DNA of 63,933 nucleotides from an uncultured Eubacteriales bacterium (GCA_964636895.1 CAZWUW010000003.1:1-63933), one strand, 5' to 3'. Positions 2,906-62,807 are shown, counted from the first letter of the stretch. Program-made: numbers and translations. The notes: a model not told the origin generated them from the letters alone.

Positions 2906-2927
2906 TTTTAGTCCTCCCGACCCGTAT

Positions 2928-3164
2928 TTAACCTCCGCCCACTGGCGGAAAAACACTGACCGTATCGCCGTCAACCAGGTCTTTTTCCAACGCACAATGG
3001 ATGCCGTTAACCAGAATTATAGTCGCTTCAGCTTCCGGTATATCATAAGCCCGGATAAGCTCCCGGACACTAAGGGGCCCCTCATGGATATAGGTAGCTT
3101 CACCGGATTTAAGATAATTCCGCAGCGTGGCAAAAACTTTCAGCGTTATTTGCATATTCACCAC
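2928..3164 (-). CDS. MoaD/ThiS-family ubiquitin-fold (sulfur-carrier-like) small protein.
   Basis: 78 aa ending ...DGDTVSVFPPVGGG-stop (C-terminal Gly-Gly). Size and pattern fit MoaD/ThiS. It lies 3 nt after the ahcY stop and 22 nt before the aor start. Confidence 0.7.
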   Translation of the reverse strand: MVNMQITLKVFATLRNYLKSGEATYIHEGPLSVRELIRAYDIPEAEATIILVNGIHCALEKDLVDGDTVSVFPPVGGG

Positions 3165-3167
3165 CCT

Positions 3168-4421: not shown

Positions 4422-4461
4422 TTAATTACCTCCCTCAATGTTATCATATTTTATGTATATA

Positions 4462-5499
4462 TTAACCAAAGATTTTCTTTAGATTATCTTCATATGGTGG
4501 ATATATGACCCCCCGGTCGGTAATAATGCCTTTGATTAAATGATGCGGAGTAACATCAAAGGCGGGATTATAAATCCGCACACCTTTAGGTGCTAAACCG
4601 ACGCCAAAGACTTCCGCCACTTCCCGGTGGTCTCTTTCCTCAATCGGAATATCATCACCATTTGCCAGCGCCAAATCAATAGTTGAAGCAGGTGCCGCCA
4701 CATAAAAAGGCACATTGTTTTCCTTTGCCAGCACTGCTACTGTATATGTACCAATTTTATTGGCCACATCTCCATTAGCCGTAATCCGGTCGGCACCAAC
4801 AACAGCCAGGTGAATTTTGCCCTGCCGCATCAGGTAGCCGGCCATGTTATCTGTAATCAGGGTCACCGGGATATTGTCCTGCATCAATTCCCAGGCGGTA
4901 AGCCGGGCCCCCTGCAACAATGGCCTGGTTTCATCAGCATAAACATGAATTCTTTTTCCTGCTTCATGCGCTGCTCTGATTACCCCCAGCGCGGTGCCAT
5001 AACCGGCGGTAGCCAATGCACCGGCATTGCAGTGGGTAAGGATGCTCGCCTCCGGTGGCACCAATTCATTGCCAAACCGGCCAATACTTCTGTTCATTTC
5101 AATATCTTCGGCAAAAATTCGACCGGCTTCTACGGTCATTATCCGCAGGATGTCAACCACTGGTCGGTCTGAATTTGTTTCGGCTATTTTGCGCATGCGG
5201 TTGATGGCCCAAAAAAGGTTAACTGCGGTAGGTCTGGTGGCCGCAAGTGTATTGGCAATCTGTTCTATACTGCGAAAAAACTCTTCATGAGCGCAGGAAC
5301 TAAATGACCGGGCCCCCAGCACCATCCCGAAAGCTGCTGCTGCTCCAATAGCCGGCGCTCCCCGTACCTGCATGGTCTTGATGGCTTCGGCCACATCATT
5401 ATATGTTCGGCAAGAGACATATTCTACATTATGGGGAAGTTTCGTTTGATCCAGCAATTCCAGGGTGTTATCCACCCATCTCATGGTATGCAAACTCAT
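4462..5499 (-). CDS. mtnA: S-methyl-5-thioribose-1-phosphate isomerase.
   Basis: 345 aa. Contains LELLDQTKLP..., VRGAPAIGAAAAFG, TRPTAVNLFWA and GADRITANGDVANKIGTY. eIF-2B/MtnA family signature. Confidence 0.9.
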   Translation of the reverse strand: MSLHTMRWVDNTLELLDQTKLPHNVEYVSCRTYNDVAEAIKTMQVRGAPAIGAAAAFGMVLGARSFSSCAHEEFFRSIEQIANTLAATRPTAVNLFWAINRMRKIAETNSDRPVVDILRIMTVEAGRIFAEDIEMNRSIGRFGNELVPPEASILTHCNAGALATAGYGTALGVIRAAHEAGKRIHVYADETRPLLQGARLTAWELMQDNIPVTLITDNMAGYLMRQGKIHLAVVGADRITANGDVANKIGTYTVAVLAKENNVPFYVAAPASTIDLALANGDDIPIEERDHREVAEVFGVGLAPKGVRIYNPAFDVTPHHLIKGIITDRGVIYPPYEDNLKKIFG

Positions 5500-6302
5500 T
5501 CTCCTTTTCCTGACCCCAGACTGCCCAGTTCACCAAGGGCAGTTTTGCATGTGCAGCTACGTTCTGCCGGCATGATAGCAACGGCCTGCATGATCAGTTT
5601 TTTTAGATTGTCATTATTGTTATTCATGGCTTCCAGTACTTCAGCATGAGTTAATGGGGTGGGTGAAATTCCGGCAGCAAAATTTGTTACTGCTGCCACC
5701 GTGGCGTAACATATTTCGGCTTCTCTGGCCAGTACCGCCTCAGGCACGGTGGTCATTCCCACCAGGTCACCGCCCAGGTGACTGTACATTTTAATTTCCG
5801 CGGGTGTTTCAAAGCGTGGGCCTTCTGTACATACATATGTACCTTGGTCATATATTTTTATATCCAAGTTCGCACCGGCTTTGGCGAGCACGTCCCGTAC
5901 CACTTTGCAATACGGTTCGGTCATATCAATATGTACAACACCTTGTTCGCCGTCTTCATAAAAGGTCTGCGGCCTGTTCTTGGTAAAATCGATAAACTGA
6001 TTAACCAGCACGAAATCACCCGGTCTCATCTCCAGATTCAGTGACCCGGTTGCGGCCGTGGCAATGATCTTCTCAACGCCCAGTTCTTTAAGAGCCAGTA
6101 TATTAGCCCGGTAATTTACTTTGTGCGGTGGAACAGCATGGTTTTCGCCGTGCCGGGCCAGAAAAGCCACTTTCTTGTTGGCATAAGTACCGATTTTAAT
6201 TGTTACCTGACCATAAGCCGTTTTAATGGTCTCCACGGTAATCTCACTTAATATCTGGGGATCATAAACCCCGGTTCCCCCAATGATGGCAATCTTGGGC
6301 AT
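5496..6302 (-). CDS. mtnP: 5'-methylthioadenosine (or methylthioinosine) phosphorylase.
   Basis: 268 aa. Contains MPKIAIIGGTGVY, FLARHG..H..PPHKVNYRANI and VGMTTVPEAVLAREAE. PNP/MTAP family. 4-nt overlap with the mtnA start. Confidence 0.85.
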   Translation of the reverse strand: MPKIAIIGGTGVYDPQILSEITVETIKTAYGQVTIKIGTYANKKVAFLARHGENHAVPPHKVNYRANILALKELGVEKIIATAATGSLNLEMRPGDFVLVNQFIDFTKNRPQTFYEDGEQGVVHIDMTEPYCKVVRDVLAKAGANLDIKIYDQGTYVCTEGPRFETPAEIKMYSHLGGDLVGMTTVPEAVLAREAEICYATVAAVTNFAAGISPTPLTHAEVLEAMNNNNDNLKKLIMQAVAIMPAERSCTCKTALGELGSLGSGKGE

Positions 6303-6350
6303 CTATTGTACCTCCTGTATGCTTCTGTACCTGCTTCTGTATTTGCTGCA

Positions 6351-7265
6351 TTACTTCTCAAATAATGCAGCGGCAAAGTCTCCGGCCTGAAAATCCCTGA
6401 GGTCATCTGTTTTTTCACCAATCCCGATTAGTTTTACAGGAATATCCAGTTCCGCCTTAATTCCAATAATTACACCGCCCTTAGCGGTTCCGTCCAACTT
6501 GGTCAGCACAATACCGGTTACACCAACGGCAGCATCAAATGTTTTGGCTTGATTAATGGCATTCTGCCCGGTGGTGGCATCTAAGACAAGTAACACTTCA
6601 TGAGGCGCGGTGGGAATTTCCCGGGAAACAACCCGAAAAACCTTCTTAAGTTCCTCCATTAAATTTGATTTGGTATGTAACCGACCAGCTGTATCAACAA
6701 TCAGAATATCCAAATTTCTGGCCCGGGATGCCTGAATAGCATCATAAACCACGGCAGCCGGGTCAGCCCCTTCGCGATGTTTGATGACGTCAACACCTGT
6801 TCTGTTGCCCCAAATTTCAAGTTGATCAATGGCAGCCGCCCGAAAGGTATCACCGGCGGCAATCAAAACTTTTTTGCCCTCATCCTTAAAACGGTTAGCC
6901 AATTTACCTATAGTAGTGGTCTTACCGACACCGTTCACCCCCACTACCATGATAATAACCGGTGCTGTCCCATTTATATTTAACGGTACATCTGCGCCAG
7001 TGAGAATCTCGGTAATCTGTTCCTGTAAAATCGGTTTCAGTTCCACAGCATCTTCAATCTTGCGTTCTTTTGCCCGCCGCCGTAGCTCTTCCACCAATGC
7101 TACTGCGGTATTTACACCTACATCTGCCTGAATAAGGATTTCTTCCAATTCCTCAAAAAGCTCATCATCAATTTTTTTTCGTCCGGTAACCAGGGTTTCT
7201 ATTTTTTCCACAAAGCCTTGACGTGTTTTAGTCAGACCAGCTTTTAACTTATCAAAAAAGCCCAC
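6351..7265 (-). CDS. ftsY: Signal recognition particle receptor FtsY.
   Basis: 304 aa. SRP GTPase motifs GVNGVGKTTTIGKLA, DTAGR and TKLDGTAKGG. Confidence 0.95.
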   Translation of the reverse strand: MGFFDKLKAGLTKTRQGFVEKIETLVTGRKKIDDELFEELEEILIQADVGVNTAVALVEELRRRAKERKIEDAVELKPILQEQITEILTGADVPLNINGTAPVIIMVVGVNGVGKTTTIGKLANRFKDEGKKVLIAAGDTFRAAAIDQLEIWGNRTGVDVIKHREGADPAAVVYDAIQASRARNLDILIVDTAGRLHTKSNLMEELKKVFRVVSREIPTAPHEVLLVLDATTGQNAINQAKTFDAAVGVTGIVLTKLDGTAKGGVIIGIKAELDIPVKLIGIGEKTDDLRDFQAGDFAAALFEK

Positions 7266-7324
7266 TCCGTACCCTCCTTGATACTAAATTGAAAGGTTAA
7301 GGACACACCTTAACCTACAACATT

Positions 7325-8476
7325 TTACCATATATATTGTTTTATCTCAATTGGTTTGCATAAATTCGTGTACTCCTGGGCTACGCCAAATTTTCGGTTC
7401 CTAATTTCGCTTTCCTCTGCCGGAGTTTTGGCTTCAAAAAACTTTTGCCCGAGCCGCTCATCTTCTTCGGCCAGGCTAAAGATCTGTTCCACCGTTGCTA
7501 TGACGGTGGCACCTCGCACTTTGCCGGAACTATCATGTCCGATGGCAATAATTGGCCGCCCCCATGTTCCCGGTCCGGCATTGGCATCCCCTATATGCAT
7601 AACCCCGGTACCACCGGGATGGGTGTGCACAATAACTGCATTTTCCGGGATTTCCCTGGCATATATCTGACGCAAAGACTTGCCTTTAATATCCACACAA
7701 CTTGCCGCTAATAACCTGGATGGCACATAGCCAATACCACCTACTACCATATTACCTTCTGCCACCACATGGCCATTATTGTCAATTTTTGCCATCATGG
7801 CAACTTCCCTGCCCTGGCCGACTTCCATGGATTTATCAACTAGTTGTCTGGCCAGTTCCTCCGAAATAGAATTAACACCAAGCCTGGGCAACTTCCAGTC
7901 CGGTTTTGTAAAATCCTCCTTTGTAAGACGGGGTTGTTCAGGTATGTCTGCTAACGGAATAACCGTGGAGAGCTCCAGGAATTTAAGGCTCATCTCCGTC
8001 GAACGGCGCATGATTTCTTTTTCTTCCTCCATGGTTTTGGCGGCCAGAATACGCAGATCAATTTGTTCAGTCTCTGTTGCCAGGTCAAAAAACTCCGGTC
8101 GGGGATAAATTAATCCTACACCGGCCAAATTTTCTTGTTTGATGCCGATAGCAACTAACGGAAGATTAAAAAAATCCACCCCGTTAACATCCGTTATCAA
8201 ACCAGTATGTCCGGGTCTGGTGGTTATCAGCACGGCATTATCCGGCAAATGCTCCAGTCCTTCAAGTAAACATTTGTTAGTCATGGATATAATATTGTTT
8301 AATTGTTGTCGCAATGGCATACCGGACAAACCGCCATCGCTAATTTCGGTGGTCCGGTCTATTATTCCATCCCGATTAACCAGGCCGAAACAACCGGCGT
8401 TTCGACCCTGACTAAGCTCATTGGTACGCTTAATCATATCATTGACAATGTATTTCGCTATTCCCCTTATTTCCAC
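7325..8476 (-). CDS. Uncharacterised protein with an internal tandem duplication. The C-terminal repeat carries a JAB/MPN-like HxH-x7-H-x2-D motif.
   Basis: 383-aa ORF with a GTG start at 8474-8476 and GGAGG 5 nt upstream. Repeat 1 is LPDNAVLITTRPGHTGLITDVNGVD...LVAIG. Repeat 2 is IPENAVIVHTHPGGTGVMHIGDANAG...IIAIG. I did not recognise a named family. Confidence 0.7.
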   Translation of the reverse strand: MEIRGIAKYIVNDMIKRTNELSQGRNAGCFGLVNRDGIIDRTTEISDGGLSGMPLRQQLNNIISMTNKCLLEGLEHLPDNAVLITTRPGHTGLITDVNGVDFFNLPLVAIGIKQENLAGVGLIYPRPEFFDLATETEQIDLRILAAKTMEEEKEIMRRSTEMSLKFLELSTVIPLADIPEQPRLTKEDFTKPDWKLPRLGVNSISEELARQLVDKSMEVGQGREVAMMAKIDNNGHVVAEGNMVVGGIGYVPSRLLAASCVDIKGKSLRQIYAREIPENAVIVHTHPGGTGVMHIGDANAGPGTWGRPIIAIGHDSSGKVRGATVIATVEQIFSLAEEDERLGQKFFEAKTPAEESEIRNRKFGVAQEYTNLCKPIEIKQYIW

Positions 8477-51611: not shown

Positions 51612-52457
51612 TCAGGCCGGATAAACTATAATTCCCACTACACCCGGACCAACGTGGGTACCTACTACAGATCCCAGTTCGCTGATAATTATTTCTGAAC
51701 AATTCAACATTGACTTAACCCGTTCCTGCACCTTCAGCATGGAAGTATAGTCATCACTGTGTACTATGGCGCATACCAGCCGCCTGCCGGGATCAAAACC
51801 GCCGGCGGCCAGTTCCACCATCCGTTCAGTTGCTCTGGCTTTGCCCCGGACCTTTTCCAATGGTACAACCATTCCATCTGCAAGCCCTAAAATCGGTTTA
51901 ATGTTCAGCAGTGCACCTAACAGTGATCCGGCTTTACCGATACGACCGCCCCGCGCCAGGAATTCCAATGTATCTACAACAAATAAAACTTTAACTCTGT
52001 CAATTAATTCACTCACCTGGCTCAGGATTTCCTTACGCGTCCGGCCTTCCCGGGCAGACCTGGCGGCGGCTAGCACAATTAGACCCAAACCCATACTGCA
52101 TGACCTAGAGTCAATAACAAAAACATCCTTGGAATCAACCATGGTTTTGGCTAATTGAGCCGAATGAAATGTGCCGCTTAACGCTGATGTAATATGAATT
52201 GAAATAACACTGTCCCCTTTTTGGGTCAGGCGCTCATATAAAGCTACAAACTCACCCGGTGCCGGCTGGGATGTAGTGGGTAAAGCCGCTGAATTCCGAA
52301 GGCGGTGATAAAATGTAGATGCATCCAGGTCAACTCCATCCCGGTAAATCTCCTGGCCAAACACCACTTTCAAAGGTACTACAATAATACCGTATTTTTC
52401 CACCAGTTCTGCCGGTAAATCTGCAGTACTGTCGGTAACTATGCGCACGGTTCCCAT
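51612..52457 (-). CDS. DegV-family fatty-acid-binding protein (FakB-type).
   Basis: VRIVTDSTADLP... with the DegV pattern throughout. Adjacent to the DAK2-domain gene. Confidence 0.85.
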   Translation of the reverse strand: MGTVRIVTDSTADLPAELVEKYGIIVVPLKVVFGQEIYRDGVDLDASTFYHRLRNSAALPTTSQPAPGEFVALYERLTQKGDSVISIHITSALSGTFHSAQLAKTMVDSKDVFVIDSRSCSMGLGLIVLAAARSAREGRTRKEILSQVSELIDRVKVLFVVDTLEFLARGGRIGKAGSLLGALLNIKPILGLADGMVVPLEKVRGKARATERMVELAAGGFDPGRRLVCAIVHSDDYTSMLKVQERVKSMLNCSEIIISELGSVVGTHVGPGVVGIIVYPA

Positions 52458-52490
52458 ATTAAATCTCCCTTTTCAAAATATCAAGCTTTT

Positions 52491-54077
52491 TTATTCAACT
52501 GAAAACAGGTAATAATATAACGGTTGACCGCCATAATGCATTTCTGTTTCTAGCTGCGGCCACTTATCGACAATTGCAGTCATTAAGGCATTCGCCTGGT
52601 CTGCGGTAATATCCGCTCCGTAAAAAACAGACAATATTTCTTTGCTGTCATCCAGCACGGAAATAATTGATTCCAATGTGACCGCATTTATGTCCTGGCC
52701 GGCTACTTTAATTTCATCGTCAATAATCCCCAAAATATCTCCCTTATTGATTGACTTGTCGTTAAAGAAAGTATCCCGCACAGCAAAGGTAACTTCACCT
52801 GAAATAATATGTTTTATAGTTTCCTGCATCAACCGCACACATTCTGCCGGCTCCTTTTCCGGTGTAAAAGCCAGCATTGCAGCTATACCCTGCTGAATGC
52901 TGCGGGTCGGTATAACCTCAACATTTTTGGGGGTTAGCTTGCGGACCAGTTGAGCAGTTAAAATGATATTGCTATTGTTAGGCAGGATAATCACATGCTC
53001 TGCCGGCACTTTTGCTATGGCGCGGGCAATTTCTTCGGCACTGGGATTCATGGTCTGCCCACCGGAAATCACTTCATCTGCGCCCAGACTAAAAAAAACT
53101 TCCTCCAGTCCACTGCCGGACGCTACCACAACCATCCCAACTGGTTTTTGCCCGCCTTCCGGAACAACCTGACGATGCTGCAGGGCCATATTATCCACCT
53201 TAATCTGGTAAATTTCCCCGAATTCCAGGCAAATCTCCAAAGCCTGCCCCGGTTGGTTGGTGTGCAAATGCACCTTGACGGTTTCATCCGTACCCACCAC
53301 CAGCAGACTGTCACCGAGGTCATTTAACCGGTTCCGTATTAAATCGGTTTGCAAGCTCTGTCCTTTGATTAACAGTTCGGTACAATATCGATATGCAATT
53401 TCGACACTTTCAGGTGCCGGAGATAATGGTCGGGCAAGTTCAGCCGGCAAATTACAGTCCGTCAAAATCGTCTTGGCATCATTGGCACCGGCCAAAAAAC
53501 CGCTCAAAATTACTTCCCAACCTTTGCCACCGGCATCTACCACCCCGGATTGAGCCAGTATCGGGAGCATTTTGGGCGTTTCCGCCAATGCTGCCCTGCC
53601 ACCGGCCAAGGCGGCGGCAAGTACGCCATTTGGGGCTACCTTTTTTTTGGCGGCGTTCTTGGCTGCCTGGGAAGCCCCTCTGGCGACGGTGAGAATAGTC
53701 CCTTCCACCGGTTTCATAACAGCCCGGTAAGCAACTTCTGTACCATTATGCAAAGCATCGGCCAAAATAATAGAATTGGCCTGTTGCTTATCCTTTAGTA
53801 CTTTGGCTATGCCCCTTAGCAACTGCGAAAGAATAACTCCGGAATTACCCCGGGCACCCATCAGTGCACCCCTGGCAGCTGCCTCGGCTACAGCACCGAG
53901 CTTTGCCGGCATGATACTCTCCACTTCCTTGGCCGCTGAAGCCATAGTAAGGTACATGTTGGTACCGGTATCACCGTCAGGTACAGGGAACACATTCAGG
54001 GCATCTATTTTTAGTTTCGATTCTGCTAACGTTTCTGCCGCCCTTAGGATCATCCGGGCATACTTTTCCCCGTCCAA
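52491..54077 (-). CDS. DAK2-domain protein YloV (fatty acid kinase FakA-type).
   Basis: TTG start. Contains DALNVFPVPDGDTGTNM and GARGNSGVILSQ. About 528 aa, typical of YloV/FakA. Confidence 0.85.
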   Translation of the reverse strand: MDGEKYARMILRAAETLAESKLKIDALNVFPVPDGDTGTNMYLTMASAAKEVESIMPAKLGAVAEAAARGALMGARGNSGVILSQLLRGIAKVLKDKQQANSIILADALHNGTEVAYRAVMKPVEGTILTVARGASQAAKNAAKKKVAPNGVLAAALAGGRAALAETPKMLPILAQSGVVDAGGKGWEVILSGFLAGANDAKTILTDCNLPAELARPLSPAPESVEIAYRYCTELLIKGQSLQTDLIRNRLNDLGDSLLVVGTDETVKVHLHTNQPGQALEICLEFGEIYQIKVDNMALQHRQVVPEGGQKPVGMVVVASGSGLEEVFFSLGADEVISGGQTMNPSAEEIARAIAKVPAEHVIILPNNSNIILTAQLVRKLTPKNVEVIPTRSIQQGIAAMLAFTPEKEPAECVRLMQETIKHIISGEVTFAVRDTFFNDKSINKGDILGIIDDEIKVAGQDINAVTLESIISVLDDSKEILSVFYGADITADQANALMTAIVDKWPQLETEMHYGGQPLYYYLFSVE

Positions 54078-54102
54078 TACTGTTTATCCCCCTTAATACC
54101 GG

Positions 54103-54438
54103 TTAAATGCTGATTACCCGGACTCCCTGGACATTTATGTTAACTGATTTTACTTGCAAACCGGTTTGCTTTTCTACCTGGTATTTCACCTTATCCACAA
54201 TATTTCTGGCCACTTCTGCAATATTAATACCATAGCTTACAATTACATACAGGTCTATAACTACATACTCATCCTCAAAGACAACTTCTACACCTTTGGT
54301 CAGGTCTTCCTTGCCCAGTAAATGACCGAGACCGTCCTTCAGTTTACGTCCGGCCATGCCCACTAGACCGTAACATTCAATAGCCGCAGCCCCGGCAATG
54401 GTGGCAATCACTTCTTCAGAAATATTAACCATACCCAC
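54103..54438 (-). CDS. Asp23/Gls24 family envelope-stress protein (YloU-like).
   Basis: 111 aa. Contains ISEEVIATIAGAAAIECYGLVGM... Confidence 0.85.
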   Translation of the reverse strand: MGMVNISEEVIATIAGAAAIECYGLVGMAGRKLKDGLGHLLGKEDLTKGVEVVFEDEYVVIDLYVIVSYGINIAEVARNIVDKVKYQVEKQTGLQVKSVNINVQGVRVISI

Positions 54439-54487
54439 GGTAACCTCTCCTTCCGGTCAAAATCCTAAAAAAGATGAGGATAATTCC

Positions 54488-54700
54488 TCATCTTACAATA
54501 CTAATTTGCTCTTTCTGCAGATCATCCAATTCAGCCAATAATGTGTCCAAGTCAATTCCGTGCATCCTGGCACCGGCCTCTATTGACTCCTGAACGGCAC
54601 CCATACAAGTCAAACAGGCCATGCCGTGCTTTTTAAAAACCTCCCTGACTTTTGGGTGGGCTTGTAACGCTTCTAAAATGGACATGTCTTTGTTAAACAA
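54488..54700 (-). CDS. DUF1858 / hybrid-cluster-protein-associated redox disulfide-type small protein.
   Basis: The ORF track extends to 54805. I prefer the TTG at 54700 (GAGGAGGTG 7 nt upstream). Reads (M)FNKDMSILEALQAHPKVREVFKKHGMACLTCMGAVQESIEAGARMHGIDLD. Confidence 0.65.
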   Translation of the reverse strand: MFNKDMSILEALQAHPKVREVFKKHGMACLTCMGAVQESIEAGARMHGIDLDTLLAELDDLQKEQISIVR

Positions 54701-54862
54701 TGAACCCCACCTCCTCACGGCTTTTATTAAACCAATTCTACATTTACCAGACGAATTCCTGCCAATTGCAGCGGAAAAAAGTTCACCGAAAACTATTCTT
54801 GTCAACCACCCTGTTATTTGATATAATAGAAAAGCTATGAAATCCTAAAGGAGGTGAACTCC

Positions 54863-55051
54863 ATGGCAAAATGCGAAATTTGCGGCAAAGGGATCAGCAC
54901 TGGTATCCAGCTTTCCCACTCCCACATTCGCACCAAGAGAACCTGGTCGCCTAACATACAAAAAGTAAAAGCCGTGGTCAACGGGGCACCGAAGAAAATT
55001 AATGTGTGCACCAGATGTCTCCGGTCCGGCAAAGTACAAAGAGCTATCTAA
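54863..55051 (+). CDS. rpmB: 50S ribosomal protein L28.
   Basis: ATG at 54863 after AAAGGAGGTG. Reads MAKCEICGKGISTGIQLSHSHIRTKRTWSPNIQKV... Confidence 0.95.
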   Translation: MAKCEICGKGISTGIQLSHSHIRTKRTWSPNIQKVKAVVNGAPKKINVCTRCLRSGKVQRAI

Positions 55052-55084
55052 AAGGATTTGGTTATCAAATCCTTTTTTTATTTT
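55051..55084. terminator. Bidirectional terminator between rpmB and hslO.
   Basis: AAAGGATTTG-gttat-CAAATCCTTT followed by TTTTTATTTT. Confidence 0.75.
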
Positions 55085-55982
55085 ATTCAGCTTTTGGCGT
55101 TTGTGCTTCCGTCAGCAGTTTTTCCAGTTCATTTCTTTCAAAATGATGTACTTCGGAGCAAAAGTGACATTTGATTTCTGCCACCCCCAGCTCATCGATC
55201 ATGCTTTTTATCTCACCAGCGCCAAGACTGATAATAATTGGTTCCAGCATTTCTTTTGAGCACCGGCACCGGAAGGCCAGCGGCCTGGTCTCCAGCAAAT
55301 TGAACTGCAGCGGGCCTAACAAGTCCGCGAGGATTTCTTCGGGAGAGTGGCCGGCAGCAATCATGTTACTGACAGGTAAAACAAACTTTAGCATTTCTTC
55401 CAGTCTGTCAGTGGTTTCCTCGTCTGCTCCGGGCATCAGTTGGATAAAAAAACCGCCGGCGGACTGTACCGAACCATCCGGTTCCACCAAGACCCCCAGT
55501 GAAACAACCGTCGGTATTTGTTCTGAATTAGCAAAATACAAGGCCAGATCCTCGCCGATTTCACCTGTAACCAGCGGGCTGCTGCCTGTATACGGCTCTT
55601 TCAGCCCCAGGTCCCGGGAGATATAAATAAATCCCTTTTTACCCACCGCCCCACCCACATCCAGTTTGTTACCCTTACTAGGCAGATGTACATCAGGGTT
55701 TTGCACATAACCACGCAAGTATCTGCCGGCATCAACGCTGCATACAATGGCACCCAACGGGCCATCTCCGATTATACGCAAAGTAAGTAGATCTTCACCC
55801 TTCAGATTCGCAGAGAGCAAACCCCCGGCAGTCAGTACCCGCCCCAGAGCAGCGGTGGCGGTAGGAAAAGTACCATGTCTTAGCCGGCTTTCTTCCACCA
55901 GGTTTGGAGTACGGGCAGCAATGGCGCGAATCATTCCCTGAGCAGCTGTGCCTATCACCATATAGTCCGGTTTATTCATCAT
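55083..55982 (-). CDS. hslO: Redox-regulated chaperone Hsp33.
   Basis: 299 aa. C-terminal zinc centre CRCS...(KCHFCSEVHHF). The start overlaps the upstream gene's stop (ATGA). Confidence 0.9.
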   Translation of the reverse strand: MMNKPDYMVIGTAAQGMIRAIAARTPNLVEESRLRHGTFPTATAALGRVLTAGGLLSANLKGEDLLTLRIIGDGPLGAIVCSVDAGRYLRGYVQNPDVHLPSKGNKLDVGGAVGKKGFIYISRDLGLKEPYTGSSPLVTGEIGEDLALYFANSEQIPTVVSLGVLVEPDGSVQSAGGFFIQLMPGADEETTDRLEEMLKFVLPVSNMIAAGHSPEEILADLLGPLQFNLLETRPLAFRCRCSKEMLEPIIISLGAGEIKSMIDELGVAEIKCHFCSEVHHFERNELEKLLTEAQTPKAE

Positions 55983-58204
55983 AACACCTCTTCTCTGTTA
56001 ATGATTAATGTTAAATAAGGTGCAGCGCCAAAGCTGATCATCGTAGCGGCCGCTACTACCCCGGAGTCATTGAACAATAAAGCCGCCAGAGCACCGATTA
56101 TCATACCGGTCATGCCGCCGTGAAAATACGGGTAATCGGCTTTTATCTTGCGGCCGTTGACCGGCCTCAGCGTGTTAAATATTATGAATCCGGCCAGGCC
56201 GGTCAAAAAGGTCCAACTCCAGGTGGTACGCTTGATGAGTTTCCAGTTCATAGCTGCTTTTCTGGTAATAATATTTAGTATTTCTCCGGCTCCGGTTTCC
56301 CGGATCAAACTAACGGTGCGGCCAATGTGGGTCTGTGCGGTCTGGCTTCTGTTCATATCGTATACTAAAAATAATCCCAGCATCAGCCCGATACCTAAAG
56401 CAAGCGTCAGTAAAGAATTGCGATTAATGGTATATCCGGCCAACACCAGCATAACGCCCCCAAAACCGGCCACCGCAGCTATTCCGCCGCCTACATTGGT
56501 CCCCAGTTCGGGAGCGACAATAACATATATGCCCAGTAAAAATACACCGCCTATAATCAATCTGGCTATCGCATCATTTAATTTACATACTGAGACAAGG
56601 CCGGTCAGACCGGCAATGAGTGTTCCCAGCAAGACACCCATATATTCATTACCCAGTCCGTAAAAGCGGGCACCGGTCATCGGGTCATAACTTAACGGTG
56701 ACGTTTTGTTCAGCGGGGCCCCAATAAAAAGGTCTATTATAATCGTAATTGCAGTAAACAATGCAATCACAACAAACGGTCCCAGCTCGTTTTTTCTGCC
56801 GAGGATATATCCAAACAGGGAAATTAACAGTGTCAGACCCAAAGCTGCAATGATTCCGGAAACTAGCTGCGGTTGCGGCAATATAATGCTTTGCAGCAAC
56901 AAAGCCAGCGGTACGGCCGTCAGTGCCATAAGCGCCGGTTTTAATCGGCGGACAAAGCCCTGACGTAAAAGCAGTCCAATTATGACCACCATCAGAATAA
57001 CCAATACTGTATTGATATATCCCTTTACCAAAGGATATCTTAGTGAATTAGTGTATACAATCCTCTTGTTGCTGTCTGACAGCATTTTAAAATCCGCCCG
57101 GCCAGGCCGACTTTCTATCGCCTGCCCATTAAATAACAGGCCTTCCTCCCCCTTTAGTACGTTACTAATGCCAAAAAAACCGGCTACCGTGGGAGCAATA
57201 TCGGTATTCGCCACCAGGCCGTTTCTCTTAATAGTCCCGGACCACAACAAACCCGGCGCAATGCCTTTACCGGCGACAATAACAGGGGTCAGATAGTTTT
57301 CCTCGGCCATAGCGGCAAAAGTCGGCTCCGGTACTATAATCATCAGCAGGTCATGCTGCCAATCCAATTGTTCGGCTACGCTGCCAATAAATCCGTCCAG
57401 TTCGTGGAGGATTTTTTTTCTTTCCTGTTGCACAACCCTCGTCAAAGAAATGTCGGTCATCTTATCCAGCATGGAAGTCTCAGCGGTTTCAATTACTATC
57501 AGTGCCGCTTTGCTACGCATTTCCCTTAACATATGAAGCCAGCGTGGATAATCAGGTTTTCTGCCGGCAATACGATCAGGGGCTTTAACCATGGTGCCGC
57601 TTCCAACATCACCAAAATCCACCAGCCCCAGACTGTCCATAGCAATATTCACTACGTGTCGGTTAACCTCTTTATCTACATCCGTATTGCCGATAACAGC
57701 AGTTTTTTTGCCGTGCCGGTGCAAAGCCTCGCCAATGGACCCAATCGTATAATTATACTTTAAATCACTATTGGATTTTAAAATGTCCACAATCCCTAAG
57801 TGGACAACAGACCCAGGTGCCGGCCGCCGCCCGGTTCGACGGAAATATGCATCGCCGGCCGTCCCCGCTTCATAAGGTTCCGACTCGTTATAAGCTAACC
57901 CGCCCAAAAAACCACCCTTTAATTTAAAACCGGCACCAATTGTTGTATATGTATTTTCCGGTGTGCGCGCAACACCGGCGGCAGGATTAGTGGTCATTAA
58001 GCCAATTGCACCTGCTGCGGAAATCTTTTTAATATTTGGTAATTCATTATTAACCAGGTCTTCCACCGTAACCCGGTCAATCACCACCAATACTACCGTC
58101 CCTGGCGATGTACCGTTCGGACCTGCAGCAGCCACTGCTGCCCCCGAAAAAATCAGGAGAAAACACAGACAAAGGCAAATAATTGTAGCTCTTTTAAATT
58201 TCAA
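55979..58204 (-). CDS. Uncharacterised envelope protein: signal peptide, phosphodiesterase/alkaline-phosphatase-like ectodomain and a C-terminal polytopic membrane domain (paralog 1).
   Basis: 741 aa, TTG start after GGAAGGAGAG. Contains VVLVVIDRV...LPNIKK...ARTPENTYTTIGAG...GLVANTDIAPTVAGFFGI. About 10 hydrophobic segments follow, with GARFYGLGNEYMGVLLG, GTNVGGGIAAV and LLFNDSGVVAAA. Confidence 0.7.
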   Translation of the reverse strand: MKFKRATIICLCLCFLLIFSGAAVAAAGPNGTSPGTVVLVVIDRVTVEDLVNNELPNIKKISAAGAIGLMTTNPAAGVARTPENTYTTIGAGFKLKGGFLGGLAYNESEPYEAGTAGDAYFRRTGRRPAPGSVVHLGIVDILKSNSDLKYNYTIGSIGEALHRHGKKTAVIGNTDVDKEVNRHVVNIAMDSLGLVDFGDVGSGTMVKAPDRIAGRKPDYPRWLHMLREMRSKAALIVIETAETSMLDKMTDISLTRVVQQERKKILHELDGFIGSVAEQLDWQHDLLMIIVPEPTFAAMAEENYLTPVIVAGKGIAPGLLWSGTIKRNGLVANTDIAPTVAGFFGISNVLKGEEGLLFNGQAIESRPGRADFKMLSDSNKRIVYTNSLRYPLVKGYINTVLVILMVVIIGLLLRQGFVRRLKPALMALTAVPLALLLQSIILPQPQLVSGIIAALGLTLLISLFGYILGRKNELGPFVVIALFTAITIIIDLFIGAPLNKTSPLSYDPMTGARFYGLGNEYMGVLLGTLIAGLTGLVSVCKLNDAIARLIIGGVFLLGIYVIVAPELGTNVGGGIAAVAGFGGVMLVLAGYTINRNSLLTLALGIGLMLGLFLVYDMNRSQTAQTHIGRTVSLIRETGAGEILNIITRKAAMNWKLIKRTTWSWTFLTGLAGFIIFNTLRPVNGRKIKADYPYFHGGMTGMIIGALAALLFNDSGVVAAATMISFGAAPYLTLIINREEVL

Positions 58205-59363
58205 AATACTCTCTCCTTCCGGTATCCTTTAGACAATACCGGTAAAAATCCACTGTTTTTGCAATCATGGTATCCTTTGAGAATTCAGAGACGGTCATTT
58301 CATTCCCGGCCTGGCCCATTTTTCCCCTCAGCTCAGGCTGCGCCAGCAGTATTTTTATGGCGCTTGCCAATGCCCCGGCATCACGGGGCGGCACCAGCAT
58401 CCCGTTTTGTTCCGGCTTAACCAGTTCCGGGAGTCCGCCCACAGCGGAAGCAATTACCGGCTTACCGGCAGCCATGGCTTCAATAGTCGTAATTGATAAA
58501 CCTTCCGATATAGAGGGAACCACAAAAATATCAAACAATTTCAAAAAAGGGGTAATGTCAGGTTGGTAACCGGTGAAAACAACCCGACCGGCTAAGCCGG
58601 CCCGCTGCACCCGGTCTTCGAGTTCAGCCCGCAGAGGCCCGTCACCAACAATCATAAATAATCCGGCACAGGCTTCATTTACCAACACATCAATAGCTTC
58701 AATAAATACAGCAAGACCTTTCTGGGGTGCCATGCGGGCTACAGTTCCCACTACCGGCACATCCGGTCCAATACCGTAATTCTTGCGTAACAGTGTGAGA
58801 TCCGGCTCTGTCCGGAACCTGGCCAAATCAATGCCGTTATATATGGCCACGACTTTATTGGGGGGAATCCCAAATTTCTCCTCCATTTCATCCCTTAGCG
58901 CCCGGGACACGGTTATGATACCCGAAGTCCTCCGACCCAGCACTCTTTCCCCCCGGGTAAAAAACAATCGTTTCAGCAATGGCACCTCGTCATAAACCAC
59001 AAAGTTATGTACGGTGGCAATGATTACCGGCACACCGGCCAGCCAGGCCGCAATCCGGCCTACCAACCCCGCTTTGGAACCATGACAATGCACAATGTCA
59101 AAACCGGTTTTTTTAATTAATCTATATAGTTCAAAAATACATTTCAGATCTTTTTCAGGCTGAATAGGACCGACGATTTCCACCTGGTGGTATTTGATCC
59201 CTTGGGCTTCAATTTCCCGCACCATACCAAAATTAGCCGCACCCGGACCAGCCACCTCTACCATAAAATCGGTCGCCGATAATCCACCGGTCAAATCCAA
59301 CAGGTGTTGTTTCATGCCGCCCGCAGCAGGTCTGACAATGTGTAAAACATTAATATTTTTCAT
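58194..59363 (-). CDS. GT4-family (GT-B) glycosyltransferase.
   Basis: 389 aa. Contains VLHIVRPAAGGM and a C-terminal EGLSITTIEAMAAGKPVIASAVGGLPELV. 11-nt overlap with the downstream paralog 1. Confidence 0.85.
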   Translation of the reverse strand: MKNINVLHIVRPAAGGMKQHLLDLTGGLSATDFMVEVAGPGAANFGMVREIEAQGIKYHQVEIVGPIQPEKDLKCIFELYRLIKKTGFDIVHCHGSKAGLVGRIAAWLAGVPVIIATVHNFVVYDEVPLLKRLFFTRGERVLGRRTSGIITVSRALRDEMEEKFGIPPNKVVAIYNGIDLARFRTEPDLTLLRKNYGIGPDVPVVGTVARMAPQKGLAVFIEAIDVLVNEACAGLFMIVGDGPLRAELEDRVQRAGLAGRVVFTGYQPDITPFLKLFDIFVVPSISEGLSITTIEAMAAGKPVIASAVGGLPELVKPEQNGMLVPPRDAGALASAIKILLAQPELRGKMGQAGNEMTVSEFSKDTMIAKTVDFYRYCLKDTGRREYFEI

Positions 59364-59467
59364 GAATTCACCGGTTTCCCCTCAGAGACATAAATATTAC
59401 CATTTATCCTCACATCTTGTTTTTGCACTATATTCGACAAATATCTCTGCTGACCTGCAAAACTGTT

Positions 59468-59497
59468 AAAGCCGGTCGTTTTATCCCAACCGGCTTT
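59468..59497 (-). terminator. Hairpin at the 3' end of the L,D-transpeptidase gene.
   Basis: AAAGCCGGT-(12 nt)-ACCGGCTTT. One arm covers the stop codon. AACAGTTTTG follows on the minus strand. Confidence 0.4.
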
Positions 59498-60191
59498 ACA
59501 AGCCTACAGCAGCATATATATCTGCATCCACCTGACCCGTCACTTCAAAATAATGCTCTTTTTGAAACTGTTTGAGGGCTTTTTCGGTAGCTTTACCAAA
59601 GAAACCATCTATTTCGGCCTGAAAATATCCCTGTTCTTTTAATTTCATCTGCAGCAGCATAACATCTGAACCCCGGTGACCACTGTGCAGGGTTCGCCTT
59701 TCTTCATAGAAAGGCGGATAAATCATGCCTTTAATGCTAACTCTGCTGCCTTCAGCTACCAAATCGTATAGTTCTTCAACATCCCGGTTAAGCATCCGAA
59801 TACACCCATGACTTGCCGCCGAACCAATGGACCAGGGCTTATTCGTGCCGTGGATGCCATACAACCCCCATGGCACGTTCAAGCCCATCCATCTGGTACC
59901 AAATCCTGTTCCCCAGTGACGGGCCTTGCGTTTAATAATCCAATCTCCCACCGGTGTTGGCGATTCTTCTTTACCGATAGCTACATGATATGACTTGTAT
60001 TGTTTGTTGTTTACATAAACAGTAAGCATTTTTGTTTTTTTGTCAATAACAATGTAATTCTTCCCACTTTCTGCTGGAGCCGCTGTTGCGATGACCGGCG
60101 CTATAATTATCATAATACCTGTGAGCAGCAGACATATTTTCATAATAACCCTTGACTTCAAAAAGCAAACACCTCCACTTAAAACTCTCAA
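59496..60191 (-). CDS. L,D-transpeptidase (YkuD fold) with a C-terminal peptidoglycan-binding domain.
   Basis: Catalytic SHGCIRM. PG_binding_1-like tail GSDVMLLQMKLKEQGYF...DGFFGKATEKALKQFQ. The start is ambiguous (60191, 60161 TTG or 60143 ATG). Confidence 0.85.
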   Translation of the reverse strand: MRVLSGGVCFLKSRVIMKICLLLTGIMIIIAPVIATAAPAESGKNYIVIDKKTKMLTVYVNNKQYKSYHVAIGKEESPTPVGDWIIKRKARHWGTGFGTRWMGLNVPWGLYGIHGTNKPWSIGSAASHGCIRMLNRDVEELYDLVAEGSRVSIKGMIYPPFYEERRTLHSGHRGSDVMLLQMKLKEQGYFQAEIDGFFGKATEKALKQFQKEHYFEVTGQVDADIYAAVGL

Positions 60192-60213
60192 GGATTATTT
60201 TTTGTAATGAGAC

Positions 60214-62196
60214 TTAAATATATTCATTCTGAATACTCAATAACAAGCCCAGTGGGATAATAAGATATGTAAACATCATGGCAGTAGCTATGACCCCGGT
60301 ATCATTGAAAAGAAATGCCACCACACCGCCGAAAAACAATACCGTAAAACCTTTTGCCAAATATGGATGAGTTGCCTGCATCCGGCTAAATTCACCTTGG
60401 CGAAACATTTTATAAATTAGATAAAACTCAGCCAGTAAAATCAGATTCCATGGTGGTATTATTAGCATTAAAAGAAACAATGAAAGTTTTGACCATAAAA
60501 TTTTTAAAAATTTGGCTCCAAAATCTCCGCTTAGCAGTTCAGTCAACACTTTTCCGGCATGGGTCCGTTCAGGGTTAAGGGTGGCATCAAGATATGCGAT
60601 GCCAATTTCCACCGCAAAAACTGCAATTACAATTAACATGACCTGCCGCCAATGCACCGGTTTTTTGCCTGCCAGCACTGTAACAGTCACAGTGGCCACC
60701 ACCATGGCGGCAATAGTCCCGCCAACATTTGCCCCAAAACGCGGACTCAAACCAACCACCGGCAGTAATGTAAATATCAATCCCGTCACTATAGCTAAAC
60801 CACGGGAAAACCGCAGAGTATGGAAAATCAGGAATTGACCCAGTACAGTAGCACCCAGCAAAATTCCCATAGTGTCATTATTCATTCCATAATATCTGCC
60901 GCCCATAAAAACGTCGGAAAAGCCCAATGGCGAATTAAGGTAAAGCCCCCCACCGGTAAAAAGTCCGGCCAACAGCACAATTGCGGTTATAAAACCGGCC
61001 CCTCCCAGCAACGGCAAAAGCTTTTTGGCCCGGCTGAGCAAGCAGCTTAAAATGCTTGTCGTAAACACAATAATCAGGGTGAATAAATAGGAGCCGGCGA
61101 AATTCAAAAACGGCGAGAGCATAAATGTCACCATAGGCAAGGTTATAACACCGCAGGCCAAGAACCGGATAATCGCCGGAGCAACTCTAAGCCGCCGGCG
61201 TAAAACGGGCATATACAAAAAAACCATAGCCAAAACCGTAACAGCAACGTAAAATCCGTGCATGATGTAGCGACTGATTTTTAGGTTCTTATACTGTGCC
61301 AAGCTATTAATCGTATAAGTCAGCGCGTTATCATGACTGCTGACCCTAATGGGCTCACCTATGTATGTTGTGTTTTTGTTAATACCAAAATGCTTGAAAA
61401 CCGTTGGCACAAAGTCAACATTAGCTACTAAACCCGGTCGCTTGGTGGTGCCGGAAGTCACAATGCCGCCTTTGACAATACCGCCTTTGATACGGGGGCC
61501 GGTCATAATCACGGGAGTCAGGCTAAAATTGCCTTGGCTGATCATTTCCTGCGATGGATTCGGAGTTAACAGCAACAGTAATGTATTATCTTGGTCAATT
61601 TTAGTAAATATCCGGCCTAATAAATTATCGGCCTGGTTAAGAACATCCGAAGACTCGCCGTAATTTATGACCAGGATATCGGCAATTTCGTATATCCGCG
61701 CAAATTCAGCCAACAGAAGTTCATTATTGGAGCCAGTAACAGTATATGGTACTTTCCCGTTTTCATCAGCCGCTAATAATATTGTTTGCCGGTCGGGACG
61801 GGAGGAATTGGTTTTTTCCAGTACAGCAATTTTCAAACCGTTTTCCCGTGCCGTTCTGCCAAAGTTACCAGCCTTGCCGCTGTCTTGCGGATAACTTGCC
61901 CGCATGCCCATATTGAGGGACAGATAGCCGCTTTCCCGGTTTTCCCACGAAAATGACTTGCCCCGAACATTCATTAATCCTATACCGCTTTTGTCCAGCA
62001 AGGACTTGAAATTTGGCATGTCGGCCTTGACCAGATCATCAATCCCGATCCGGTCAATAACGAAAATCACCGCTTTGCGCTGATCATTTTTTTCCGCCGC
62101 AGTTATCGGACTTCCGTAAGCCGTCCAAAATACCGCTAACAGCACCATTAGCAGTATCCACTTTGCTTTTGTAGCTTTTAAATATTGAGAGTGCAT
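60214..62196 (-). CDS. Uncharacterised envelope protein, paralog 2 of 55979..58204.
   Basis: The ORF track extends to 62220. I prefer the ATG at 62196 (AAGGAG 7 nt upstream). Shares with paralog 1: V(I/V)DR..(I/V).(D/E)DLV...(L/M)PN(I/F)K, LTPVI, GLVAN.D..PTV..FGI, G.R(F/Y)YG..N..MG(V/I)LLG, G(T/A)NVGG.IAA and FND(S/T)GV(V/I)A. Confidence 0.7.
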   Translation of the reverse strand: MHSQYLKATKAKWILLMVLLAVFWTAYGSPITAAEKNDQRKAVIFVIDRIGIDDLVKADMPNFKSLLDKSGIGLMNVRGKSFSWENRESGYLSLNMGMRASYPQDSGKAGNFGRTARENGLKIAVLEKTNSSRPDRQTILLAADENGKVPYTVTGSNNELLLAEFARIYEIADILVINYGESSDVLNQADNLLGRIFTKIDQDNTLLLLLTPNPSQEMISQGNFSLTPVIMTGPRIKGGIVKGGIVTSGTTKRPGLVANVDFVPTVFKHFGINKNTTYIGEPIRVSSHDNALTYTINSLAQYKNLKISRYIMHGFYVAVTVLAMVFLYMPVLRRRLRVAPAIIRFLACGVITLPMVTFMLSPFLNFAGSYLFTLIIVFTTSILSCLLSRAKKLLPLLGGAGFITAIVLLAGLFTGGGLYLNSPLGFSDVFMGGRYYGMNNDTMGILLGATVLGQFLIFHTLRFSRGLAIVTGLIFTLLPVVGLSPRFGANVGGTIAAMVVATVTVTVLAGKKPVHWRQVMLIVIAVFAVEIGIAYLDATLNPERTHAGKVLTELLSGDFGAKFLKILWSKLSLFLLMLIIPPWNLILLAEFYLIYKMFRQGEFSRMQATHPYLAKGFTVLFFGGVVAFLFNDTGVIATAMMFTYLIIPLGLLLSIQNEYI

Positions 62197-62346
62197 ATCG
62201 AACTCCTTTATACTTGCCATATTTTATTATATACTCTTTACCATAGTGTCGTCCAATATATCAGGCAATAGTTTAAGCAAAAGGCAGGAAACTCCAACAT
62301 AGGTGGCGAAGAAAAATAATACCGTCTATCAAAGGAGTAAGAATAA

Positions 62347-62772
62347 ATGGTAATTCGAGGCAAGGACGCGCACATTCTTAGCGAGAAACATAAGCGAATA
62401 CTAAAAATCAGGATTGAAAACCGAATAAAAACCGTAAATAACAAGGATAAGGGTACCGTCCGCTGGGAGACCCGCAAAAAACTGGCTACCATCTCATCTT
62501 CAAAGGACTTTATTATAAAACTTGTCTCACGAGTGGAACTGTTATATCAGATGTTATTTGACCGCAACTTCCCGGTGTCGGCAAAAGTAGCAAGAATAGT
62601 CACTGCCGGATTGCTTTACTTTATATCGCCCGGTGATTTCCTGCCTGATGACATCCCGGGTTTGGGCTACCTGGATGATGCCTTTGTTATTAATGAAATC
62701 TGGGATAAAGTCAGCCAGGAAGTGCAGAATTATATTTCTATAAAAGGATTGGATGCAGATAAATATATATAA
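62347..62772 (+). CDS. DUF1232 (YkvA-like) membrane-associated protein.
   Basis: 141 aa. Contains LLYFISPGDFLPDDIPGLGYLDDAFV. AAAGGAG RBS. Confidence 0.75.
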   Translation: MVIRGKDAHILSEKHKRILKIRIENRIKTVNNKDKGTVRWETRKKLATISSSKDFIIKLVSRVELLYQMLFDRNFPVSAKVARIVTAGLLYFISPGDFLPDDIPGLGYLDDAFVINEIWDKVSQEVQNYISIKGLDADKYI

Positions 62773-62775
62773 AAC

Positions 62776-62807
62776 AAAACCCGGTCAAATAAACCGGGTT
62801 TTATCTT
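62776..62807 (+). terminator. Rho-independent terminator.
   Basis: AAAACCCGGT-caaataa-ACCGGGTTTT-ATCTTT. Confidence 0.8.

Follow-up and report, generated by a model that had tools for sequence, protein, structure and literature searches.

What do two related membrane proteins do on either side of a glycosyltransferase and an L,D-transpeptidase? The question is raised by a 63,933-nucleotide stretch of DNA from an uncultured Eubacteriales bacterium (GCA_964636895.1 CAZWUW010000003.1:1-63933; hereafter the window), whose minus strand carries, in this order, par2, an L,D-transpeptidase gene, a gene for a family 4 glycosyltransferase (GT4), par1 and then hslO. A preliminary description had laid out this cluster as an envelope system, taken par1 and par2 to be paralogs outside any named family, and proposed a phosphodiesterase or phosphotransferase activity for them. 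Open reading frames (ORFs) and Pfam matches agree with its gene layout and coordinates. The reading that we favor for the function is another: the members of the par1/par2 family would be transferases that work outside the cytoplasm on a lipid-linked sugar produced by the GT4 enzyme, a role read from context to which we give a probability of roughly 0.45.

The paralogy of par1 and par2 is clear. BLASTP aligned the two proteins end to end at 25% identity (E 5e-41), and the shared motifs listed in the preliminary description can be seen in that alignment. At E<=1e-3, an exhaustive profile search recovered 6001 cluster representatives (50% identity), of which 3298 also pass E<=1e-30. Most are about 730 residues long, and at least 539 loci were confirmed in species-representative genomes. 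The hosts include Thermincola, Desulfotomaculum, Desulforudis, Carboxydothermus, Thermoanaerobacter, Caldanaerobacter, Caldicoprobacter, Geosporobacter, Syntrophomonas and Halanaerobiales. Pfam and NCBIfam scans of the single par1 and par2 sequences gave no usable match, and phmmer and profile hmmsearch against PDB sequences returned only sub-threshold alkaline phosphatase (AP) superfamily matches for the outer domain and none for the membrane domain. All database names of family members are 'hypothetical protein', and full-text literature searching on AP-like polytopic proteins of Firmicutes, on PF03706 together with glycosyltransferases, on GT-C together with alkaline phosphatase and on new GT-C families turned up no paper about it. 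By these searches, the family is new and without a name, as the preliminary description supposed.

The fold of the outer domain was recognized from structure prediction. An AlphaFold2 model of par1, built on a 33-sequence alignment (pLDDT 88, pTM 0.84), gave 135 Foldseek matches in the PDB at E<=1e-3, and all 50 that were listed belong to the AP superfamily. They include an iPGM-like protein, LtaS/LtaP (among the top matches, E 8e-6 to 4e-5), sulfatases, ENPPs, phosphopentomutase and YejM/PbgA, whose periplasmic domains had the lowest root-mean-square deviation among the fold matches (5.7-6.3 Å). The outer-domain profile matched iPGM and sulfatases weakly at the C-terminal D..PT..G element, and Pfam Metalloenzyme, SGSH_C, Sulfatase and Phosphodiest were each matched weakly in 3-7 of 33 members (Sulfatase in 6, best E 5e-4). 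On the Foldseek and weak profile matches together, the AP-fold assignment of the preliminary description is correct, and the modeled outer domain belongs to the AP superfamily at the level of fold. The outer domain of par2, which lacks an insert found in par1, has about 275 residues instead of the roughly 350 estimated earlier.

To count conservation, we used an alignment of 180 diverse family members, to which the values below refer. In the par1 model, the position of the AP nucleophile is occupied by T81, which caps the N terminus of helix 82-91 right behind strand 66-71. This position is Thr in 40 members, Asn in 31, Ser in 31, Ile in 17, Leu in 12 and Val in 10, so that Thr and Ser together reach 39%, and no column beside it has a conserved Ser or Thr. 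The par2 residue opposite T81 is Asn in both BLASTP and MAFFT alignments, and the (T/S)-x-E-N element (ARTPEN/FSWEN) that had been matched to a nucleophile in both paralogs therefore falls away. In a profile alignment with iPGM 5vpu, the Asp-His metal pair aligns to P292-x-P294, where Pro is found in 90% and 83% of members. D43, the first metal Asp after strand 1, is Asp in 77%, and no His is conserved in the outer domain, the highest column having 41%. The canonical AP nucleophile and metal ligands are thus not conserved in the aligned family, which leaves the proposed phosphodiesterase or phosphotransferase chemistry unsupported. N173, D175, R182, D242, R245, D270, S322, N333 and D335 of the outer domain are 91-100% conserved. 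In the model, most of the conserved polar residues of this domain follow core strands, which is the place of the AP active site by secondary-structure order rather than by distances, and the outer domain seems to have a re-tooled pocket, not a dead one.

One representative departs from this domain plan. P0204 (680 residues, Thermogemmatispora sp.) has an N-terminal PLD-like segment (HxK...GSxN; PLDc_2, 3e-8) in place of most of the AP domain. It was not kept as support for phosphodiester chemistry, because it stands alone and no membrane helix precedes its outer segment; a chimeric gene model is the probable explanation, although a real domain swap may be behind it.

Family-wide selection is strongest, as judged from the alignment, on the membrane domain, which the preliminary description had treated as secondary. 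R513, N519, H626 and D713 are found in 100% of members, Y515, K649 and N712 in 99%, and D491, W662, R648, N653 and E520 in 96-98%. Hydropathy, the positive-inside rule and the model helices predict an N-in anchor, the outer domain and then 11 helices with a C-in end, giving 12 helices in total; the order of these parts is the one described before, and the membrane helices number 11 rather than about 10. The invariant motifs lie on predicted outer loops (496-521, 564-570, 616-661 and 712-714). Short members of 546-709 residues consist of the membrane domain with only the last ~60 residues of the outer domain (S322 to G360), and these two parts form the family's core.

The membrane domain has no Pfam or NCBIfam match and no PDB sequence match by profile search. 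Its own profile found 96 matches, all hypothetical and with no Pfam domain on the membrane part, and no member matched Pfam FTSW_RODA_SPOVE or Wzy_C. A model of the membrane domain alone (pLDDT 90.5, pTM 0.90) had no Foldseek match in the PDB at E<=1e-3. The top two matches were RodA (6pl6_A) and WaaL (7tpg_B), with a probability of 0.63, and the next fell to 0.14. At the level of the models, this is a weak hint to the fold of outer-face enzymes that use undecaprenyl-diphosphate-linked sugars. A transporter-like internal duplication was also considered for this domain; self-hhalign gave a probability of 0.1% and none was found.

ORFs around the family genes were clustered from 85 loci in Bacillota species genomes. 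A GT4 orthologue lies within 300 nucleotides of the family gene on the same strand at 39 of these loci (24 upstream, 15 downstream), and no other neighbor approaches this frequency, indicating that GT4 is a real functional partner, as had been proposed. In the window, the GT4 protein matches Glycos_transf_1 (1.2e-39, 136 bits against a cut-off of 26) and Glyco_transf_4 (1.5e-29, 104 bits against 28); with both GT-B halves above the Pfam thresholds, we assign it to GT4 by sequence. It matches no NCBIfam equivalog at cut-off, and the solved structures nearest to it are BshA (3e-26) and PglA (1.5e-25). Deacetylase genes also occur occasionally as neighbors, with PIG-L after the family gene at loci L002 and L072 and CE4 in place of GT4 at L001. 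These neighbors and the nearest GT4 structures suggest that the sugar is an N-acetylhexosamine (HexNAc).

Gene fusions tie the family to a glycosyltransferase directly. Five of the best 150 representatives (P0082, P0094, P0116, P0128 and P0180) are fusions of about 1770 residues, and the four that were scanned have a family 2 glycosyltransferase (GT2) between two copies of the family protein; P0052 (1479 residues) is a tandem fusion of two copies. In P0082 and P0094, the two fusions scored per copy, the first copy scores below the second, mirroring the degenerate and canonical pair of the window. The fused GT2 has its highest scores with polyprenyl-phosphate sugar synthases (AglJ, 1.8e-22; PpgS, 2.4e-16; a dolichyl-phosphate hexose transferase) and its lowest with the processive synthase PgaC (6e-4), all below the curated cut-offs. 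The copy-GT2-copy arrangement requires that both the N- and C-terminal ends of a copy be inside, in agreement with the predicted topology.

Flippase-type genes complete the set in some lineages. At L088, the fusion gene (2094..7403) and a MurJ-family gene overlap at the start of the former. At all four short-form loci of actinobacterial type, the next gene is for a GT4 with a fused flippase-like LPG_synthase_TM/TIGR00374 domain, and this domain scores above the NCBIfam cut-off. Established three-component glycosylation follows this logic, with a lipid-sugar synthase, a flippase and a polytopic transferase at the outer face (PMC11127046). By gene order, the family has the genetic linkage to a lipid-sugar synthase and a flippase that is expected of GT-C-type three-component systems, and its constant partner is a cytoplasmic glycosyltransferase.

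Several other neighbors recur. In many genomes (L004, L005, L010-L013, L015-L018 and others), a conserved downstream block comprises speD (S-adenosylmethionine decarboxylase), a heptaprenyl-diphosphate synthase subunit, UbiD, UbiA, UbiE and a flavoprotein (menaquinone-type genes); after GT4, this block and housekeeping genes are the neighbors met most often. Because this block is absent from the window and the two-copy clade, a link to polyprenyl metabolism was set aside in favor of likely plain synteny. SbcCD-like proteins, tRNA synthetases, Gpr, SpoIIP, TauE and arginine deiminase are recurrent but housekeeping, and were likewise not retained as partners. A gene of the VTT/DedA family lies directly upstream of the par2 orthologue in L003 (710..1378) and near the family gene in L092 (2438..2977). 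DedA-type proteins are linked to undecaprenyl phosphate recycling, and this neighbor could be relevant to a lipid-carrier pathway. A small calcineurin-like metallophosphoesterase gene (Metallophos_2, 4e-28; L003 10246..10797) stands between the par1 orthologue and hslO in L003, L007 and L008, and not in the window; in L041, L042, L076 and L079, the family gene is followed by a larger one of Metallophos/SbcD-like type. The short-form family gene of the four actinobacterial-type loci L086, L091, L092 and L093 always has a HemQ-like gene of the chlorite-dismutase family next to it, upstream and in divergent orientation, and glutaredoxin, BolA and Fe-S assembly genes are found nearby.

We then compared the two copies of the window. 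Among the 56 family columns that are at least 90% conserved, par1 departs from two (D242E and R245M) and par2 from 18, including N173K, D175N, D491G, R648S and N653F; par2 retains R513, Y515, N519, H626, N712 and D713. At residues 239-245 (window 57470..57490), par1 reads A-E-T-S-M where the family has the 94-96% conserved G-D-x-x-R of the outer pocket. Since par2 is also without that Arg, neither copy of this genome has R245. In L001 (Phosphitispora fastidiosa) and L003, the upstream copies group with par2 (34-35% identity) and the downstream copies with par1 (42-44%); par1 orthologues overall have 42-69% identity. Judged by these identities and column counts, the duplication is old and par2 is a divergent, degenerate copy.

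In the window, L001, L003, L094, L096, L097 and L098, the gene that comes after the par2-type gene is one for an L,D-transpeptidase. A metagenome scan with the par2-type profile added five more loci, and the L,D-transpeptidase gene follows in all four that extend far enough. Family-wide, this neighbor is present at 4 of the 85 loci, window counted. The four-gene set of the preliminary description is therefore conserved among relatives, but only in one clade. The order in L096 is par2, L,D-transpeptidase, CorA, GT4, par1, and the set consists of two sub-modules: par2 belongs with the L,D-transpeptidase, GT4 belongs with par1, and unrelated genes can intervene between the pairs. Thus the link to the L,D-transpeptidase that had been seen in the window is real, and by the gene orders examined it is tied only to the par2 subfamily of this clade. 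The enzyme itself matches YkuD (1.3e-23, 84.7 bits against a cut-off of 23.4) and PG_binding_1 (9e-15), and its translation contains the catalytic motif HG...SHGCIRM, read as IHGTNKPWSIGSAASHGCIRM. With the domain, the catalytic His and SHGC(I/V)R all present, it is assigned to the YkuD L,D-transpeptidases. Its genetic tie to par2 points to peptidoglycan as the site of action in this clade.

From the folds, the conservation, the even-helix topology, the gene linkage and the fusions, we infer a donor, an acceptor, a catalytic step and a pairing of the copies. GT4 would build a sugar, probably HexNAc, on a membrane lipid at the inner face. The lipid-linked sugar would then be flipped, in other lineages by the fused or adjacent flippase-type proteins. 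At the outer face, par1 would take the flipped lipid-sugar as donor and pass the sugar or head group to an envelope acceptor. The Arg/His/Lys cluster of the outer face would hold the lipid phosphate, and the remodeled AP pocket above this basic cluster (D335, N333, S322, D242 and D175) may be the site for the acceptor or head group. par2 would be a degenerate partner subunit, most likely paired with par1, as in the copy-GT-copy fusions. In the two-copy clade, the system would act on peptidoglycan worked on by the linked L,D-transpeptidase. A bolder version of this scheme, tentative and less likely than not but with a real chance of being true, is that the membrane domain represents a new fold class of extracytoplasmic lipid-linked-sugar transferase, in effect a new glycosyltransferase class beside GT-C and SEDS, working as a dimer or pseudo-dimer, with an AP fold that lacks nucleophile and His ligands re-tooled as the acceptor or head-group pocket. 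It would build a HexNAc or hexosamine (HexN) envelope glycoconjugate common in thermophilic and syntrophic Clostridia-type Bacillota, with a short form in actinobacterial-type lineages.

Among known systems, the family would work most like three-component extracytoplasmic glycosylation, in which a GtrB/PpgS-type synthase and a flippase serve a GT-C protein such as GtrC, YfhO, ArnT or Rv3779. In both, genes for a cytoplasmic glycosyltransferase and a flippase are linked to that of a large polytopic protein that has an outer domain; the GT2 fused in the family is closest to AglJ and PpgS, and conserved acidic and basic residues stand on outer loops. By contrast, the membrane domain of the family has no GT-C sequence match or significant fold match, the partner in Bacillota is GT4 and not GT2, two copies would often act together, and the AP-fold outer domain precedes the membrane domain instead of following it. 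By the sequence and fold searches, the polytopic component is not recognizable as a member of GT-C, SEDS or WaaL. SEDS proteins (RodA and FtsW) and WaaL rely on conserved Arg, His and Asp of outer loops. They act at the outer face on lipid-diphosphate-linked sugars and provide the only PDB fold matches of the membrane domain above noise, but their helix count and loop positions differ from those of the family.

Proteins with an AP-fold domain were compared in the same way. PIG-N, PIG-O and PIG-G (Mcd4, Gpi13 and Gpi7) have an N-terminal helix, a luminal AP-superfamily domain and then many C-terminal helices, which is the domain order of the family; the 'ectodomain-first' order pointed out in the preliminary description is thus not unprecedented. 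Glycosylphosphatidylinositol synthesis is also echoed in that PIG-A is a GT4 and that a PIG-L-family deacetylase gene occurs beside the family gene, as noted above for two loci. PIG-N, PIG-O and PIG-G are multi-spanning and have AP-like active sites, the two features covered by the cited work (PMC9168625). Unlike them, the family lacks the nucleophile and all His ligands, and its members have no Pfam PigN match at E<=10. LtaS, EptA/MCR-1 and OpgB combine an AP-fold outer domain with a membrane domain and act on lipid head groups, but their domain order is opposite, their catalytic Thr and metal ligands are not conserved in the family, and the 11-helix domain is unrelated to them. Since domain order and catalytic Thr both fail, the family stands outside this group. 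YejM/PbgA/LapC likewise has an AP-fold outer domain on a polytopic membrane domain, with an incomplete catalytic set in YejM. It differs in its opposite domain order, its role in Gram-negative lipopolysaccharide regulation and its lack of a glycosyltransferase partner, and the polar site is much more conserved in the family. Because the domain order fails, the family is not a YejM relative.

Several observations weigh against an outer-face sugar transferase. A strongly conserved polar pocket is kept at the canonical AP active-site position, so that catalysis may lie in the outer domain. RodA and WaaL are weak fold matches (E 0.44-0.48, TM-score 0.35), and in hhalign the membrane-domain profile matched neither FtsW nor WaaL of E. 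coli (probability <1%); on that result, SEDS/WaaL membership was dropped and the weak fold hint alone kept. About half of the 85 loci are without an adjacent glycosyltransferase gene, many of these contigs ending early. No flippase gene was identified beside the four genes in the window. Finally, polyprenyl phosphate is not normally charged by GT4 enzymes.

Three other readings were weighed with these points in mind. If the pocket is catalytic, the outer domain could be a phosphotransferase or phosphodiesterase that moves or removes the phospho-linked head group of a phospholipid-type donor made by GT4, as in LtaS, EptA, OpgB and PIG-N/O/G, with a membrane domain that only binds the lipid. The AP-superfamily fold itself, the weak Metalloenzyme, Sulfatase and Phosphodiest matches in some members, and the 91-100% conservation of N173, D175, D242, R245, S322, N333 and D335 at core-strand ends, in the place of the AP active site, would all fit such an enzyme. 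So would the domain order of PIG-N/O/G, with their AP-like active sites (PMC9168625), and the actinobacterial-type GT4 with its MprF-type flippase-like domain, a type that flips modified phospholipids and would thus imply a phosphodiester donor. Nevertheless, we consider this reading unlikely: only 39% of members have Thr or Ser at the nucleophile position, which is Asn in par2; Pro-x-Pro stands in place of Asp-His, no outer-domain His is conserved and D43 is kept in 77%; most of the AP domain is missing from the short members; and the Pfam PigN C-terminal domain was matched by no member at E<=10. The same loss of the canonical catalytic set would suit a non-enzymatic sensor, scaffold or regulator on a dead AP fold, which like YejM/PbgA/LapC would control the synthesis of an envelope lipid or glycolipid that it binds, for instance through GT4 activity. 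YejM/PbgA is among the fold matches, with the lowest root-mean-square deviation, and par2 is still more degenerate, yet conserved across its clade. However, at least 13 polar residues, including Arg, His, Lys, Asp and Asn of the outer face, are 97-100% conserved across about 6000 clusters, which is more typical of a catalytic or substrate site. In addition, the in-frame fusion to a glycosyltransferase suggests a pathway step rather than regulation, and the domain order of YejM is opposite. We hold this to be the least probable of the readings considered here.

Alternatively, the membrane domain could be an exporter, flippase or channel for the glycosyltransferase product, which the outer domain would receive or modify as it emerges. 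A polytopic domain of 11 helices is compatible with this, as is the position of the glycosyltransferase between two copies in the fusions, which recalls synthase-channel architectures; and at most Bacillota loci a glycosyltransferase is present without a separate flippase gene in the vicinity. Where flippases do occur, they seem to be supplied separately: a MurJ-type gene abuts the GT2 fusion, and the actinobacterial-type GT4 already carries a flippase-like domain. The fused GT2 resembles polyprenyl-phosphate sugar synthases and not processive ones, the membrane domain has no internal repeat (self-hhalign 0.1%), the transporters among its fold matches all have a probability of 0.14 or less, and the invariant residues lie on one face rather than along a pore. 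This reading too is quite improbable, and an extracytoplasmic transferase acting on a GT4-made lipid-linked sugar remains the one that we prefer.

The coordinates of the cluster are given in Table 1. The GT4 3' end and the par1 start overlap by 11 nucleotides, and the par1 stop and hslO start by 4; the L,D-transpeptidase and GT4 genes are separated by a gap of 132 nucleotides. The mechanical ORF of par2 extends to 62220. An AAAGGAG ribosome-binding site lies 6 nucleotides 5' of the ATG at 62196, and the promoter-like site would put the transcript start past 62220; for these reasons ATG 62196, the start chosen in the preliminary description, is almost certainly the true one.

Table 1. Positions of the cluster genes, par1 domains and promoter-like site in the window
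Feature	Position	Strand	Remarks
par2	60214..62196	-	660 residues from ATG 62196; N-in anchor, shortened AP-fold outer domain, 11-helix membrane domain (predicted)
L,D-transpeptidase	59496..60191	-	231 residues; signal/anchor segment, YkuD, C-terminal PG_binding_1; alternative start ATG 60143
GT4 glycosyltransferase	58194..59363	-	389 residues; predicted cytoplasmic, retaining
par1	55979..58204	-	741 residues; TTG start; canonical family member
par1 N-terminal anchor	58127..58183	-	Residues 8-26, N-in; hydropathy, positive-inside count; model helix 2-19
par1 extracytoplasmic AP-fold domain	57095..58126	-	Residues ~27-370; Foldseek, iPGM profile alignment, column counts
par1 11-helix membrane domain	55982..57094	-	Residues ~371-741; model, conservation, predicted topology
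hslO	55083..55982	-	Pfam HSP33
Promoter-like site TGGACG-18 nt-TATAAT	62226..62255	-	Directly upstream of par2; consensus pattern match only

Upstream of par2 and divergent from it, a plus-strand ORF of 141 residues (62347..62772; DUF1232, Pfam 5e-11) lies between par2 and thrB. A terminator-like hairpin with a 16-bp stem (62771..62807) stands at the 3' end of this ORF and could also end the thrB transcript of the opposite strand. Beyond hslO, the window (51612..55982) encodes DUF1858, Asp23, a Dak2/FakA-like kinase, DegV and RecG, in an order common to L001 and L003. Because this gene order is kept with both loci, the cluster appears to have been inserted, next to thrB, into an otherwise conserved housekeeping region.

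Taken together, about 6000 clusters and at least 539 species genomes encode an envelope protein of about 730 residues that has neither a family name nor a solved relative of its membrane half. Its linkage to a glycosyltransferase and a flippase gives it a concrete, testable role in making an envelope glycoconjugate. Wall polymers are poorly described in Thermoanaerobacter, Carboxydothermus, Desulfotomaculum, Syntrophomonas and their relatives, which are among the hosts of the family. If catalysis lies in the membrane domain, lipid-linked sugar transfer would gain a new class of enzyme; if it lies in the outer domain, an AP fold would be working without the canonical nucleophile and metals. par1 and par2, together with the natural copy-GT-copy fusions, would also offer a clean case of pseudoenzyme pairing.

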